The notes beneath the pieces are model-generated. The model saw only the letters and a list, made by a program, of their open reading frames with translations, was not told where the DNA came from and did no database searches. Made by a program: the position numbers and the translations under genes. Below are positions 43,850 through 51,882 of a stretch of DNA of 64,000 nucleotides, piece by piece. Every line of letters begins with the position of its first letter. Position 1 is the first letter of the stretch. The stretch comes from Tubulanus polymorphus (Eukaryota > Animalia > Nemertea): NCBI RefSeq assembly GCF_964204645.1, contig NC_134028.1:2976001-3040000 (forward strand). The letters are read 5' to 3'.

Positions 43850-45539
43850 TGGAGCTATCTATCAATTCGTTGTGATTATGAACTGTGTGAATCTGTACAA
43901 GGACGCTTCGATAAAAAACAATAAGATGGTAGTTGTAACTGTTGAAGTCAGTGACGGATTAACGTGCGGTCTATCGTAACTGTAAAAATGTAATATCGTG
44001 TGAACCTCATAATGTAGACCATTGTATACGTTTAGTTTCAAATAGATTCATACTAGGAACGCCTGCCTTCACAGTGACACAAACCCAGAGTATAAATGCT
44101 CATGTATTGTCTTAGTGTATCTTATACGTTGCTGCACGTATTGTTGTAAATTTGTATTCATTCTGATTCTGTAAGATTTGAATCAAGGCTAAGAAAGAAT
44201 ATGTTTTTATTAGATTACGGTGCGATGATCTGGTAGTCGAATGAAACAGCTGCCGCGGTTGTTTGTATTCAATACATGTTGTACATGTAATAATCAATAC
44301 TGTGCTTGTTGGGCATTTATTGAAACGGATCCGTTAAGCTGCTGTAAATTGACATTATCTCATCGGTATTAAGGATTAACTTGTTGCGAATTGTTTAAAT
44401 GTGTACGAAGTTTCTCCATGAGTTATGTAATATTTCTTGTAGTCAGTCAATCATAAATACCTCTCATCTTCCTTTTATTTCACAAATTCCTTGGAAATAT
44501 TTTCATAGAATTTTCTTAATACACATGTACAGGGGTAAATTGTCTTCTAAAAAAAGACTATTATTGGTGGAAGTTGTTAAATCCAGAAACCTCATTTCTA
44601 AAGTTAGACTACTCGTAGAAGTGTAGTTTTTAGAACCAAGGTTTGAGCTGCTTTTTGTTGTACCTTGAAATATCTGAGTGAGACTCACGAAAGTGGCTAG
44701 GAAGACCAGCGAGCATAATTATGATTACAGTAGATGCTATGTAAATGGAATTGTTAAATTTATGTAATTGACTTAATTGTGGAAGTGGGACACTGTCTTC
44801 ATAGCTGTATTGTTGATTCTTGCCTGTTATACATTTTTCATGACTCCTTTTCTAGAGTATGGTTTGTGAATGGCATCAACTGATGTTGATGTAATAGTTT
44901 ATTTTTAGGCACTCTTTTATGAACTATGACTGGTGAATTAGTCGTCTCTACAAGTCATGCGAGAAATTTAATACACATACATCATCATTATAAATAGCTT
45001 TGCGTTCATTTTGTAATATAAATACGTTATTGATTGGGATATTCTAACCAATCCATTAAATTACAGTATCAGTTTTATTTGGCCAGACCGAGACATAGTT
45101 GATATAATTGTGATCACATACCCTTGAGAAGTACGTACAGGTATATGTATATTATGTACAATGTATGATGCTTATTGCATGTGTTAGGGCTTTTGGTTGA
45201 TTTTCAATACTTTTAAAAAGTGATATAAGATCATAATATATTTTATGTAAATGCCATGTATAGAGTATATATTATAATACAATGTATGTATGAATGAATG
45301 TATGTATAATAAAACCGTCGCGAAAATATTTTGTGTTTGTTCACTTGAATCAATGATTGTATTTACATGGATTGAGGAAATTCTTCATATTGTATGTACT
45401 TCCAAAAATGGCATAAATAGCTGACCAATTTAAAGCGATAAGCCGTTGGCGTCATAAAAATGTGCATGTGTGGGATTCGAACCCTCAACGTATATCTCTG
45501 CGCATGCTCCGGTAGCTGACGTTGAACCTCATCTGTGTC

Positions 45540-45553
45540 GCTCTCTTTTTCAG
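45540..45553 (+). promoter_or_regulatory. TCT core promoter / 5' terminal oligopyrimidine tract of RPL3
   Basis: gCTCTCTTTTTCag about 20 nt before the RPL3 ATG, typical of metazoan ribosomal protein genes; NRF1-like TGCGCATGC at 45499. Confidence 0.8.
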
Positions 45554-45563
45554 ATCAGCCATC

Positions 45564-48500
45564 ATGGTGAGTTGACGTGTGAAAATTCTCTTGCTTACTT
45601 GATAAAATCTGTCGCCATCCGTGGCTTAATAGATAAATTTGATACAAAAACGTTATTGAACACCATAAGTTGAGATAATGAATTGTTAATTGATATTTTT
45701 GAATTGAAATATCGGCTATATGGGAAGGTAAATGTTTGAAGCGCCGGCTGATTCCATTGCAAAGGTGGCTCGCCCTTTCCTTATGTTAAACCACCTATAT
45801 TGCAGTGCTAAACTGATGCAATGAGAGCTGCATTACATAGCATTATTTAAAAGATTTTCCATTTATTTTAACCTTTTCAGTCGCACAGAAAATTTTCTGC
45901 TCCGAGGCATGGCTCTTTGGCCTTCCTCCCGAAGAAACGTAGTAGACGTCACCGCGGTAAATGCAAGTCTTTCCCGAAGGACAACAAAACCCAACCATGC
46001 CACTTGACAGCGTTCCTCGGCTACAAGGCCGGTATGACTCATGTCGTACGTGAAGCCGACCGACCGGGTTCCAAGTTGAACAAGAAGGAAATCGTTGAAG
46101 CTGTCACGATCGTCGAGACTCCACCGATGATCGCTGTCGGTGTTGTAGGTTACATCGAAACACCGAAAGGCCTCCGTACGTTCAAGACCGTGTTCGCTGA
46201 GCATTTGAGCGAAGAATGTCGAAGAAGATTCTACAAGAACTGGTGAGAATTAATATAATCAGCTTTTTAACTTCACTTTCAGGGATGTATCAATAAAAAA
46301 GTCCAGTAGTGGGGTTTATGGGATGATCAACTGTGGAACCACAGGATAATTTATTTTTAAATCCAGGATATAATAGGCCCCTTACATTAGATCGATACCC
46401 TGAAAAGATGACCGACTTGGTTTAGAAATTTGATGATCTCTGACCTTTCGGTGCCGATGGATGAATTTGCAATGTGATGAAAACGCATTTTGTTGCTAAA
46501 TGCGCTGGCAACCTGAACAACACTGTTGATATCACATGCTGCCTTCCTTCTGAAGCAATTCTCCAACTGTTAATGAATCTTATAAATCTATGTTTTCACC
46601 TGGTTTTTATCTCGTATACGAATATAATAACACATTACTCACGTGTAGGCCCCGCTCTGAGTTGATCTCTGAAGGGCTTTGCATACTGCCCCTCTGGTGC
46701 CTCCGTTGCATTATCGGGCATGTGTTACTATGGCTGCAGTTCTCCGCTCGTGTCTCGTACGCGATGAGGGCTCTAGCTTTTACTCTCCTCGTCATTTGTA
46801 AAGGTACCGATGCAAGAAGAAGGCTTTCACCAACTACGCCAAGAAATGGCAGGACAAGGTCGGCAAGAAAGACATCGCTCGTGACTTCGCCAAGATGAAG
46901 AAATACTGCAAGGTTATTCGAGTTATTGCCCACAGTCAGGTAAGAGACATTGTAATGAACGCAGGTTCAATTGGTGTCTGCCAATTCTGAAATTCACTTT
47001 TCCTAACACATTCGATGGAAACCCGTCCGATAGCAGGGAAGACATTTGGAATAACGAATGTATTCTGATATTCTTACAGATGAAGTTGCTGAAGAAACGT
47101 CAGAAGAAAGCTCACATCATGGAGATCCAAGTAAACGGCGGAACCATACCGAAGAAAGTTGACTTCGCTCGTCGTTTGATGGAGAAGAGTATCCCGGTTA
47201 ACCAGGTATTCAGCCCTGATGAGATGATCGATGTTATCGGTGTAACCAAGGGTAAAGGTTACAAGGGTAAGTGTGATCTTCGCTGCGTTAGAAATTCTCT
47301 TCATAACGTAATTATTAAATGATGAAAACGCATTCGTTGCCAAATGCGCAGGCAACCAGACATCAGTATGATGATACTACATGCTGCCTTCCTTCTGATG
47401 ACAATTTTTGTAAAACTGTAGTCTTGCTTAGTAAACTGTTCAAGTAGCTGAATTTTCCACAATTCCTTGTCTTTTTATTTGGTCAAGTCAAGTGTTTACT
47501 GCACTCGACTTCAGAATCAATTTGGTTGGAAGAAGTTTTTGATGCTGAGTATTTCTTTTTATTTCTTTAGGTGTTACATCCAGGTGGCACACCAAGAAAC
47601 TTCCGCGTAAGACGCATAAGGGTTTGAGAAAGGTCGCGTGTATCGGTGCTTGGCATCCGAGTCGAGTGCAGTTCTCTGTCGCTCGCGCCGGTCAGAAAGG
47701 TTATCATCACCGTACCGAAATCAACAAGAAGATCTACCGCATCGGCGCCGGAATTCACACTAAGGGCGGCAAAGTCATTAAGAATAACGCGTCGACTGAG
47801 TACGATATTACTGAGAAGACGATCACGCCCCTCGGTGGTTTCCCTCACTACGGTGAAGTCAACAATGATTATTTAATGATCCGAGGTGCTCTCGTCGGAC
47901 CCAAGAAGAGAGTGTTGACTCTTCGAAAGGTGAGTCTTGGACACCGTCTTGACAATAATACAGAAAATCCCTCCTAAAAATTGAATAGATTATTGACGTG
48001 CAAATGATGAACAAAAATAATAAGCATAGTTCAGCTGAAATTCTATGTTGATGCTAAAAGCTATCTGAGCACTCAATTTATCTGTGATGATGTCTTTATT
48101 TCGATGGTTGATGATTTTAACTGATGAATTGGTATTGTTATTATTTGCAGTCTCTGTTGGTGCACACCAAGCGTGTTGCGTTGGAGAAGATCAAGTTAAA
48201 GTTCATCGATACCTCTTCCAAGTTCGGTCACGGACGTTTCCAGACCAGAGAAGAGAAGATCGCCTTCATGGTAATTATTATTTCTTAATGATTGCGTCAG
48301 TAAACCGAGGAGAATCTATCGAGAAATTTAATGATGTGCATACATGATGATTGATTAGTCTTGCAGAATTTAAATAATCGTGTTGACGGATATCGCCCCT
48401 ATCTGATATGTACTTCATTGTTCTATATTTTATATCGATATTAATCTTAACCTTCTCGAAATATCAGCACATATGGCTTTTTAAATGTCTTCAATTTGAG

Positions 48501-48887
48501 TTAATCATATTTTAAGAATAGCTTTCAGTAATTTCTGAAAATGTCATTCTTAGTACAGGACAAATATAGTAGAAACTGCTTCATTTGGACCTTTGATATT
48601 AGGTTTATGAGATATTTGTAATGTAAAACTTTCAACAATAATGACATTAATATTAATGAAGCAATTTAAAATATTCAAAGTGTGCTATATGATGATTGAT
48701 TAGTCTTTCTGAAATATTTTCATGTAGAGACATATCGCCCCTATCTGATGCACCTATTTATTACTCAACTACATGTAGTCATTCTACTGCTCACTGCTAT
48801 TTGATCTGTTAAATTAATTTCGTGTTTTTTTTTGTGTGTTTTTAGGGACCGATGAAGAAAGATGTCCTGAAGGAAGAAGCTGCATAG
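45564..48887 (+). CDS. RPL3: 60S ribosomal protein L3 (uL3), 402 aa. Exons: 45564-45566, 45881-46242, 46804-46939, 47080-47266, 47571-47929, 48151-48270, 48846-48887
   Basis: Spliced ORF of 1209 nt: [22 protein letters not shown]...[14 protein letters not shown]...[14 protein letters not shown]...[14 protein letters not shown]; AATAAA at 48928 and 48945. Confidence 0.99.
46467..46558 (+). ncRNA. Box C/D snoRNA, SNORD83-like (18S Am468 human / Am420 yeast guide), copy A, RPL3 intron 2
   Basis: C box GTGATGA 46474-46480, D box CTGA 46550-46553, terminal stem ttgc/gcaa; guide TGCTGCCTTCCTT complementary to conserved 18S AAGGAAGGCAGCA, D+5 rule gives CCAAGG[A]AGG. Vertebrate SNORD83A/B are also in RPL3 introns. 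Confidence 0.9.
47315..47402 (+). ncRNA. Box C/D snoRNA, SNORD83-like, copy B, RPL3 intron 4
   Basis: C box ATGATGA 47319-47325, D' CAGA, C' ATGATGA, D box CTGA 47395-47398; same TGCTGCCTTCCTT guide and same CGCATT/AATGCG internal hairpin as copy A. Confidence 0.9.
47998..48072 (+). ncRNA. Box C/D snoRNA, SNORD77/snR60-like (28S Am1534 human / Am817 yeast guide), RPL3 intron 5
   Basis: Terminal stem gtgc/gcac, C box ATGATGA 48004-48010, D box CTGA 48065-48068; D' guide GCATAGTTCA-g-CTGA complementary to 28S UGAACUAUGC. Confidence 0.85.
48336..48413 (+). ncRNA. Box C/D snoRNA, SNORD80/snR60-like (28S Gm1625 human / Gm908 yeast guide), copy 1, RPL3 intron 6
   Basis: Stem gtgcata/tatgtac, C box ATGATGA 48344-48350, D box 48403-48406; guide TCGCCCCTAT complementary to 28S AUAGGGGCGA; second guide GATTAGTCTT before D' CAGA. 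Confidence 0.88.
48682..48753 (+). ncRNA. Box C/D snoRNA, SNORD80/snR60-like, copy 2, RPL3 intron 6
   Basis: Stem gtgc/gcac, C box ATGATGA 48689-48695, D' guide GATTAGTCTTT-CTGA, D guide TCGCCCCTAT-CTGA (48745-48748); paralog of 48336-48413 with boxes and guides conserved and the spacer diverged. Confidence 0.88.
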
Positions 48888-51882
48888 AGTTACTGTTTAT
48901 TTCAGTCGTGTATTCTGGACTAGGATGAATAAAAAAAAACATGAAATAAATATATTGTATTCAGCTTTGTTTTATCTCTGGTTTTTGACCTCTTGCTGCC
49001 ATCTATCGATTATTGAATTAACCAATTTCGGATTATTAACTGCTCCCGGAACAACGCCAGATCGCAATTATACTTGTTTGCTTATCATATTTTGGGTACT
49101 TTAGTGAAGTAATCTAGATCTCGCTTATCGATTCTGCATTTGAACAAACTAAAGGTCAATAAGAGGACACGGAAGTGGCGCGCTGTTAAAGATAGTGCTG
49201 CGTGGGATTCGAACCTATTACTGGACGAAGTGGGGCGTTGATATACGTAGATAAGAGGAAATCGCGTGCGCGCTTATAGCGTTGAGCAGTTAAGGCGTAA
49301 GAAGAGCAATTTTGCATATCATCATAATGAGAAAGCGCAGTGTCCATCGCAAACGCATCATTATCGGGTTTATAATTATTTTTCCTCTAACAAAAGGTTT
49401 TCCCATTCAAATCCGTCCATCATTCTGTCTCATCGGACTAGCACGTGAGCACAACAGATACTAGACTCGGGGTACTTGAGATTGGCGGCTTTGAGATCCC
49501 CAGCTCATTCACGAATTAGACGATTCAATCCGAAGTTGGAATACCGTTGCGGGTGTTCTAGGCGGTGTTATCTCCGTTTTAGCGCCGCGAACAAATATTC
49601 TCGAAAGCATGAAATAAGATACCTCTTAAATGATTACAACTTTTCGGTTTTCGAAAATTTTGCGTTTAAACAAACATCAAAACAATTAGATACAACTTGT
49701 AACCTGGAACCTCTCTCCCCTGCAGAACATTTACCCTGAATTTTCCCATCGTATATCATATTTAGTTATCACGCGGGTATCTGAAAACCGTTTGATCGCT
49801 TTGGGGCTTGGATTGTGGCCAATAGGCATGGTTGTTTTGTACGACACATGCCCCCGATTTTGCGATAGACATGTATTCAGACGGCAGTCTGCTGCGTAGT
49901 GCTTTTGGAATATATGCGAAATGATCGTCTCTCAACTACATACGAAATTCACTCCGTGTTGGATTAATACACGCGAACATGCTTTGTTTAAAATGGATTA
50001 ACACGCGCTACATACACATAATTAACCACGCTGAATAATAAATCGGATATATACGATTTTAAGTAAGTAAAGCATAAGCGCGTTTACCATTAATCATATT
50101 TAAATCAACAAAATAACGCATTTTTTACAACAATAAAATAACGCGCATGCAAAGTATAGCAAAATTGTGAAGTGTTTTGGGTGTGCGCCGTTTTGATTTC
50201 GGCAGCGGGGATAAGTATATATACATATGAAATTTATAACGCGCGTAGAATTCTGTAATTTCGTGTTATTTTGGGGTTTCATTATGAGTGGATCCGATGT
50301 GATGACCCGACTTCTCGCTGTCTCCGAAATATTATTGATGTTGCAATGCAAATACACAAATACATATTTCTTTACACAAAATATTGGCTTGTTTCGGTCT
50401 TAAAATATCCGTAGGTTGCCTTACACTGCGATCTCTCTTTTCGATCTAATTGTCCGTCACATAATATATGTTCGAAAATATGGTGCAATGAATTTTTTTG
50501 AATTATTTTCAATGGTCTATGGTCCAATTTACATCCGCCAAAAACATATGATATATATAGTACTCTGAAAATGAATATCATCAAATCATCATGAATTCTC
50601 GAAATGAAGAAGATTCCAGAATTAACTCGTAGACATTTTAGCTCATATTGAGACTTTCGGTGAGCGCGCAAATGCGAATTAAAAATTGCGAAATCGGAAA
50701 GTTGAATTTGTCCTCTGGAAATTATTGTTTCGAATGAGACTGCATTGTATGGTATTTCGTACATAACCCCGGCGTATATGATTACATACACGGGGAACAT
50801 TCTATTTGCAAATAGCCTAAATGTATGTACGTAGACTAATTACAAAGCTCGTTCCTTCACAGTTTGGAGAGAGATTATATGGAAATGAAAATCATTTTAG
50901 CGCTCTTGGTAACCTAGTTGTTGATATAGATGCCGGATGCTGAGAGATATGGAAATTGGGACAGCGCTATTCTTCGAGAATATGCTATGCACATTGCAAT
51001 AATAAACACAAACCACATTTTATTGGTCAACTCTTCGTAAACATACACGCCGAGTTCAATAACAGAAACGTTTTATGGCAGCGCTCGAGGCTCGACTCAG
51101 CCGTGGGAAATAAACAGTTATTAAAACCCCCTGAAATATTGCGTGATCAAACTCCCCTTCCCGTGACCATTGCCTGATCCAAGTATCACGAAGGAATCCA
51201 TTTCCATTTGGTTCAAATTCAATTTACATTTTGAAATGCCGGTTACGAAACATGCGTATCCTTTAGGTGTATGGAAGGAAATCAAGGAACTTCACATTAT
51301 TTGAATGTCGGAAAAATGAGTTTAGGAATTTTATCATAAAGAACATAATCATGCGGGTGGTTGATGCGTTGGAATGAGAAATTATAACTGACAGAATTCA
51401 GATTGAATCGAAAACTTGAATTTATTTGCGTCATTGGAGAAGAAGATGGCTCTTTAAAAAATAGGCCACACCTTGAGAGCAGATTATCCACGTACCCGGA
51501 GCCGTGCTTGAGAGAGAGATGCCTTCCGTCATATCCCTGTTGATTGCAATGTCATCACCGCGCATTTTACTGGCCCTTCACTTACCCCAATGCTACGATA
51601 CACAAGCATCCACACTCATAATCAATTTCATAACCGACATCTAAATCTCTTAGAAATGTATGCGATGAATTTTTGAAACCATTTTGCGAATCCATTTCGC
51701 ACACATTTTTATGAGTGAAATTGATTATGATAATCTGCCTTAGGGACAAGAGAACATTACAAACAGCGGTAACTTTAGAATTCTCGGCACGACTAACAAC
51801 AATCATCCCGACCACCTCTAGCGAAACTCTACTTTTTCATTATCAAAATTATTTATTTCTCCCGGCGTGTACACATAATATA

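Follow-up and report, generated by a model that had tools for sequence, protein, structure and literature searches.

Tandem hairpins sharing a C-loop-like internal loop at the 3′ end of the RPL3 intron associated with unproductive splicing, a candidate feedback sensor

Unproductive splicing of RPL3 that leads to NMD is described at an orthologous intron in human (intron 3), C. elegans (rpl-3 intron 1) and Drosophila (RpL3) (PMC4937301, PMC2689934, PMC12811116), and the orthology of the intron position is drawn from the first of these. In human, a cryptic 3′ splice site is used that extends the next exon (PMC12811116, PMC3177206), and the NMD isoform goes from 1.4% to 42% when NMD is lost (PMC12811116). 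The unproductive splicing responds to the level of uL3 or uL3L: worm rpl-3 splicing changes when rpl-3 itself is knocked down (PMC4937301), and RPL3L represses RPL3 via intron 3, to which it can be cross-linked by UV, with disease variants that either retain or lose repression (PMC12811116). The fly gene also has an NMD isoform (PMC2689934). Earlier work on human intron 3 names hnRNP H1, G runs, NPM and KHSRP as its controls (PMC3177206). PMC4937301 reports that no stretch conserved across worm, human and fly was found for the RPL3 intron, and in the portions available of PMC3177206, PMC12811116, PMC4937301 and PMC2689934 no structured cis-element is described for any of these events.

Two other described systems serve for comparison. 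L10ARE of RPL10A/rpl-1 is an intronic element of a ribosomal-protein gene, conserved animal-wide, that acts in splicing-NMD feedback; it is a linear element of 39 nt that lies between two 5′ splice sites and is a direct binding target of L10a (PMC4937301). The C-loop (Motif Atlas IL_73276.5) is known from 16S h15, a T-box, a viroid loop and bacterial 23S rRNA at 2680-84/2725-27 (PMC4551918, PMC2952876, PMC8983868). By definition a C-loop has a five-base long strand and two core short-strand bases; the pairs C2/A6 and C4/G7 cross each other, and between positions 6 and 7 zero to two bases bulge out (PMC4551918, PMC8983868). C-loops have been described as protein-binding motifs (PMC2952876), and the proteins they bind are unrelated to one another, Virp1 being an example (PMC8983868).

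We analyzed a window of 64,000 nt from Tubulanus polymorphus (Nemertea; GCF_964204645.1, NC_134028.1, 2,976,001-3,040,000, forward strand), and all coordinates below are positions within this window, position 1 being its first letter. The host gene is RPL3, identified by a PF00297 match to its translation, with seven coding exons (45564-48887) that give an unbroken reading. The intron of interest is the second after the ATG in this gene and the third in a vertebrate locus (L049), at the same codon in both, and positionally it corresponds to human RPL3 intron 3. Its productive joint was present in contigs of three of the four sequencing runs compared, from two studies, and three further RPL3 joints were present in contigs of one of them, X2; runs X3 and X4 were without splice joints and DNA-like. 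The original prediction had placed an unproductive splicing event, known from mammals, at this c.365 intron. The placement agrees with the literature, in which the event is known in worm and fly as well. The features of the locus are collected in Table 1.

Table 1. Features of the c.365 intron of T. polymorphus RPL3 and its flanks (window coordinates).
Feature	Position	Strand	Remarks
RPL3 coding exon	45881..46242	+	ends FYKN-W(TG/G), c.365; donor of the joint seen in runs X2, X5, X6
Regulated RPL3 intron	46243..46803	+	at c.365 after FYKNW; joint 46242>46804
C/D-box snoRNA-like element (U83/snR52-like)	46465..46559	+	Rfam E 0.026-0.06, below gathering score
TAATAAC, candidate branch point A46630	46625..46631	+	predicted paired with 46720-46727; P(unpaired) 0.04
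TACTCAC, branch-point-like	46636..46642	+	7 nt from upstream AG; first base differs in X1
Candidate unproductive acceptor AG	46647..46648	+	base of hairpin 1, predicted paired in both folds; P(unpaired) 0.05/0.02
Hairpin 1	46647..46679	+	loop CCGCU (46652-56) opposite AAG (46672-74); held-out model 17.8 bits, E 0.043
Hairpin 2	46687..46720	+	loop CCUCU (46691-95) opposite AUCG (46713-16), two bulged bases
Hairpin 3	46732..46778	+	consensus loop CCGCU (46744-48) opposite AUG (46764-66); closing pairs 0.95-0.96
TTTAC, candidate branch point A46782	46779..46783	+	abuts hairpin 3 base; yUnAy; putative use
Productive acceptor AG	46802..46803	+	joint in contigs of X2, X5, X6
Next RPL3 exon	46804..46939	+	translation; contig alignment
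Premature TGA after use of AG 46647-48	46896..46898	+	41 nt before next junction; three more downstream

The 3′ end of the intron is richer in GC (0.52-0.56 in 46650-46799) than its upstream part (0.32-0.44), and the three consecutive hairpins that had been folded there by eye all form in the predicted ensemble (fold of 46600-46803), with closing pairs at 0.91-0.99. The composition and hairpins of the original prediction were thus borne out, as were its positions for TACTCAC, the upstream AG, the added 155 nt, the frameshift and the TGA. Its remark that the intervening AGs lie in stems carries less: five AGs do lie there, and composition alone expects 4.97. Folding energy by itself is weak evidence for structure. 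The fold of 46636-46810 has z = -1.0, with 31 of 200 shuffles equally stable, and single hairpins and the whole element range from -1.3 to -2.3. In addition, the 5′ half of the array has two near-equal folds (ensemble -59.0 vs -56.9 kcal/mol, or -59.2 vs -58.3 kcal/mol with the letters of run X1). In one, hairpins 1 and 2 are enclosed by a predicted 8-bp helix (46628-46635/46720-46727) that also conceals A46630 and rivals the GCATA/TGTGT stem within 1-2 kcal/mol; in the second predicted fold hairpin 2 widens to 46681-46725. Pairing at 46720 is retained in both with the X1 letter. AG 46647-48 is also paired in both, so that the pair of folds alone makes no on/off switch for this AG.

The above-chance feature is the loop repeated across the hairpins. 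All three share the internal loop CCKCU/AHG, a C-loop signature, which the original prediction overlooked although it is the key feature of the array. A strict loop scan of the window found three copies, all in the array, and none elsewhere on either strand of the 64 kb. Among 1000 dinucleotide shuffles of 46636-46803, loop copies never exceeded one and 999 shuffles had none. Within each hairpin, three bases stand opposite one or two bulged ones between Watson-Crick pairs 1-7 and 5-6, with C2 opposite A6 and position 4 able, judging from sequence, to contact G7. In sequence, CCKCU/AHG fits the C-loop description base for base: cytosines at positions 2 and 4, and a short strand A-(one or two bulged)-G within a hairpin stem. 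The RPL3 loops differ from the listed rRNA C-loops, most of which have A at position 3, in having U or G there, and from known C-loops generally in standing as tandem copies in a pre-mRNA intron.

The array shares gene and intron position with the known RPL3 events, and it sits at the intron's 3′ end, the side on which the human isoform lengthens the following exon; any upstream AG or retention would lead to a premature stop. The known isoforms were observed, whereas that of T. polymorphus is predicted from the genome sequence. The difference from L10ARE lies in form, since here an eight-base loop is repeated in unrelated stems near a 3′ splice site and would be bound by uL3. A literature search, in which most subscription journals lay outside the range, found no paper on a structured element or a C-loop in an RPL3 intron. 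The regulatory event is already known; the cis-element appears to be undescribed so far.

We collected homologous introns with a degenerate pattern for the exon end and donor, which returned 55 metagenome loci. Thirteen were dropped, 12 without an acceptor on the contig and one (L047) that is not RPL3; the 42 with a whole intron, together with the window, gave 36 non-redundant introns after seven near-duplicates were merged. The survey comprises these 36, with mammal, nematode and fly introns outside it, and 62 other introns of the same RPL3 genes formed the control set. Scans of viral sequence gave a single locus, not RPL3, and no rRNA loci. The peptides of the downstream exon are diverse (median identity 67%). 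A tree on 100 residues was poorly resolved, with vertebrates as its only named anchors; from the pattern and this tree we infer that the non-vertebrate loci are animals.

The 36 introns do not align, and what they have in common is short hairpins with one internal loop. The motif has a 5′ strand YYC-CKC-YS and a 3′ strand SR-H-GRR, most often CUCCUCUC or CUCCGCUC with GAUGAG. Because the motif was first spotted by eye in the same intron set later used for counting, the controls matter. A strict pairing scan found it in 28 of 36 orthologous introns and in none of the 62 others; a relaxed scan found 53 units, one to three each, in 29 of 36 introns vs 2 of 62 controls. Two counts that do not depend on the model agree: the word CTCCTCT occurs in 21/36 target introns vs 0/62 controls, and a sequence-blind tally of predicted 3x1 loops gave C-x-C in 47 of 60 loops from targets vs 1 of 23 from controls, 41 of the 60 being CCUCU or CCGCU with A-H-G. 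Position 3 is U or G in 51 of the 53 units, and in five of them C5-G6 takes the place of U5-A6. The number and order of units and their apical loops vary freely among introns. In 12 of 29 introns, 17-47 nt separate the end of the last unit from the productive AG; in others the distance reaches 188 nt. Seven of the 36 introns have no unit (L013, L020, L023, L031, L036, L041 and L048); L013 is an RPL3L paralogue, and the other six are unexplained.

The stems around the loop vary in sequence and keep their pairing. For 50 units defined by sequence alone, the five flanking positions pair in register in 201 of 250 cells, vs 34-38% when slid, with all four pair types present. An alignment of 36 units, the shorter ones of the 53 and chosen as paired, has double-sided changes at 11 of 12 pairs and a score of 0.64 vs 0.12-0.17 when slid, a control that ignores relatedness. 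A model from this alignment made 42 matches in 157 kb (47 loci), of which 41 lie in the regulated intron on the sense strand and about ten are units outside the training set. A held-out model built without the window ranked hairpin 3 first (27.6 bits, E 1.3e-4) and hairpin 1 second in the 64 kb; hairpin 2, with its two bulged bases, was missed at E <= 5. The homologue comparisons and the held-out model uphold the expectation that the intron ends in an RNA structure that is conserved and covaries. We conclude that the array is almost certainly a real element conserved far beyond a single genome.

In all the DNA examined the motif is restricted to one intron of RPL3, which would fit a gene-specific ligand. 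The vertebrate locus L049, which matches solved uL3 at 55 of 56 residues, carries two units. The protein encoded by L013 shares 96-98% identity with bird uL3-like proteins (RPL3L), and L013 has the same intron with no units, a natural control with n = 1. Hairpins of another kind lie close to the end of the bird RPL3L intron (L013:2297-3163), which contains neither a loop unit nor an Rfam snoRNA. Both a loop unit and an Rfam snoRNA are present at L049, unlike at L013; the snoRNAs hosted at L049 are U83B and U82P.

Several introns of the T. polymorphus gene contain snoRNA-like sequences. The C/D-box-like element at 46465-46559 lies upstream of the hairpin array and is separate from it. A second U83/snR52-like copy at 47312-47406, in another intron, shares 71 of 85 aligned bases with it, and further C/D-like elements in the last two introns (47994-48076, 48079-48134, 48335-48414 and 48679-48756) are snR60/Z15-like, SNORD53-like and two ceN111/Z15-like copies (53/69 identical). 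An X2 contig of 609 bases (48149-48754) extends out of the sixth exon across most of the last intron; its end coincides with a break in the X1 contig and may be an assembly break. No Rfam family reached its gathering score in the window. The 33 weak matches in 45400-49000 do not include the array, and no match to an array-type element came from 20 homologous loci, which answers the concern that the structure might be a known independent ncRNA. Among snoRNA identities, H/ACA was rejected because neither an ANANNA hinge nor an ACA box stands beside the hairpins and Rfam has no match; a C/D snoRNA or kink-turn was rejected because the GAUGAG strand pairs with CUC/UC through covarying Watson-Crick pairs. 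We found no sequence look-alike of the element.

The original prediction had suggested that the hairpins may mimic the rRNA site of uL3. The bacterial 23S C-loop is in what we take to be helix 96 (H96). In the human ribosome H96 adjoins uL3 (10.64898/2026.10.06.757013). For these two reasons mimicry was tested on eukaryotic LSU fragments, 47 loci of which 39 cover H96. In 38 of the 39, the H96 loop is three-against-two and lacks both cytosines (C2, C4), with the consensus Y-AAU/AUU-U opposite A-CC/UC-R. The two loops are alike in having three bases opposite one or two, U-A closing apically and often C-G basally; they differ in the cytosines, both of which the RPL3 loop has. The loop model made no match in 19 rRNA fragments (about 15 kb, 3′ part of the LSU only; best E 1.4). 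A sequence mimic of eukaryotic H96 was rejected on these grounds, and at the sequence level the rRNA-mimic idea fails for this helix. One fragment of the 39, L075, has a C-loop sequence at H96 (CCAAU/ACG). About 250 stretches of prokaryote assemblies (L057-L103) contained the eukaryotic LSU rRNA motif, many of them identical, and are apparently contamination.

We then considered how the splice signals lie relative to the array. Use of AG 46647-48 adds 155 nt and shifts the frame, but the premature stop is of little weight because nearly any upstream AG yields one. This AG has an acceptor score of 1.1 vs 3.2 for the productive AG and is outscored by the AGs at 46281, 46365 and 46554; no other AG falls within the 70 nt preceding hairpin 1. 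Across 29 introns and 466 control windows, the best AG in the 70 nt upstream of the arrays had a median score of -0.4 vs -0.2 (p = 0.79), with a crude matrix on which true acceptors score only 3.0. No joint to 46649 occurs in the contigs of four runs, from which rare forms are dropped, and X2 is without cover of 46572-46802; their absence therefore weighs neither for nor against this acceptor. We rate the use of AG 46647-48 as an unproductive acceptor at slightly less than even odds. TAATAAC has one mismatch to the consensus, and such words occur about once per kb in the window. A46630 within it is at normal spacing for AG 46647-48 and better spaced than TACTCAC. On the productive side, the base of hairpin 3 is followed after 4 nt by A46782, within TTTAC, beside which P(unpaired) is about 0.8. 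Because this normally spaced yUnAy follows hairpin 3 and suits the productive AG, the looped-out distant branch point proposed originally is unneeded.

Taken together, we consider it probable that the array acts in RPL3 unproductive splicing, and on balance we favor the reading that it is a feedback sensor for RPL3, in which surplus uL3 binds the loops directly and shifts splicing to the NMD form. The loops would adopt C-loop geometry, with surplus uL3 as their ligand. Binding would stabilize hairpin 3, at the productive branch point A46782, and hinder U2 loading. The spliceosome would then take an upstream AG, of which 46647-48 is the nearest before the array, or leave the intron in, and the stop-containing form would go to NMD. 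The number of copies, one to three, would set sensitivity.

A related model keeps the loop geometry, the ligand and the hairpin 3 steps and differs in splicing outcome. The array would put a brake on the productive acceptor, either in response to uL3 or through its structure, leading to intron retention (with nuclear detention or NMD) or to a different upstream AG, and 46647-48 would be incidental. Acceptors upstream of the arrays are not enriched, and the three higher-scoring AGs of the window point the same way. In four contigs (L038, L050, L052 and L053) the ATG runs straight into codon 2, at a place where 26 of the 30 loci that reach the start have an intron, and the regulated intron is the sole one present; they resemble cDNA and may be cDNAs retaining this intron, or intron-poor genes that kept it. 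X2, which also holds spliced joints, has a contig that runs from the exon into the intron as far as 46571; this end adjoins a letter difference in X1 at 46572 and is more likely a break in the assembly than a splice site. Against the brake, the human intron uses a cryptic 3′ splice site (PMC12811116, PMC3177206), AG 46647-48 has the well-spaced TAATAAC and stands without a rival AG in the 70 nt that precede hairpin 1, and the homologue pattern required GT after the exon, so that alternative-acceptor molecules were invisible to the search. We regard this model as rather unlikely.

The hairpins could also control unproductive splicing through another RNA-binding protein, with uL3 acting indirectly; such a ligand might recognize C-loops or CU-rich words, or be a complex of the hnRNP H1/NPM/KHSRP type. 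The long strand is CU-rich, eukaryotic H96 is unlike the loop, C-loops bind proteins as unrelated as Virp1 (PMC8983868), and hnRNP H1, NPM and KHSRP are reported on intron 3 with rpL3 acting through them (PMC3177206). Yet a gene-specific ligand would suit a motif confined to one RPL3 intron in all the DNA examined, direct cross-linking of RPL3L to intron 3 is reported (PMC12811116), and the invariant loop geometry favors recognition of shape over a linear word; we hold a different ligand to be unlikely, slightly more so than the brake. Constitutive architecture or an independent intronic RNA without a feedback role, whether as the source of a snoRNA-like RNA or as a spacer that brings branch point and AG closer together, is improbable. 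RPL3 introns do host several snoRNAs, many units contain the C-box-like UGAUGA, and some introns have a branch-like word upstream of the array. But Rfam matches the element neither in the window nor in 20 loci, no H or ACA box stands beside the hairpins, and the strand opposite does not read CUGA. Moreover, the units differ freely in number, order and apical loop, a spacer has no need of an invariant loop, and RPL3L retains the intron without the loop. Finally, chance hairpins in a GC-richer patch would agree with the fold z of only -1.0 and with a motif spotted by eye in the introns in which it was then counted. The intron counts, register test, covariation, shuffles and held-out model are all contrary to this, as are the 41 of 42 model matches in the regulated intron on the sense strand, some ten of them to untrained units. 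Chance has a negligible claim and is already refuted by the controls.

Splicing-NMD feedback of RPL3 has been known for two decades, and the RNA element through which the protein is sensed has so far been undefined. The cross-species comparison of PMC4937301 would have missed the element because only eight loop bases are kept, within covarying stems. This eight-base loop gives exact bases to mutate, probe and cross-link. As RPL3L represses RPL3 via intron 3 (PMC12811116), the array is a candidate site for this cross-regulation if mammals carry it. We tentatively extend the feedback-sensor reading, at less than even confidence, to a proposal that tandem C-loop hairpins are an animal-wide direct switch for uL3 and uL3L, including human RPL3L acting on RPL3, with the C-loop ancestral and lost from eukaryotic H96. 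If this animal-wide reading is true, it would cover the RPL3L-to-RPL3 repression implicated in neonatal dilated cardiomyopathy.
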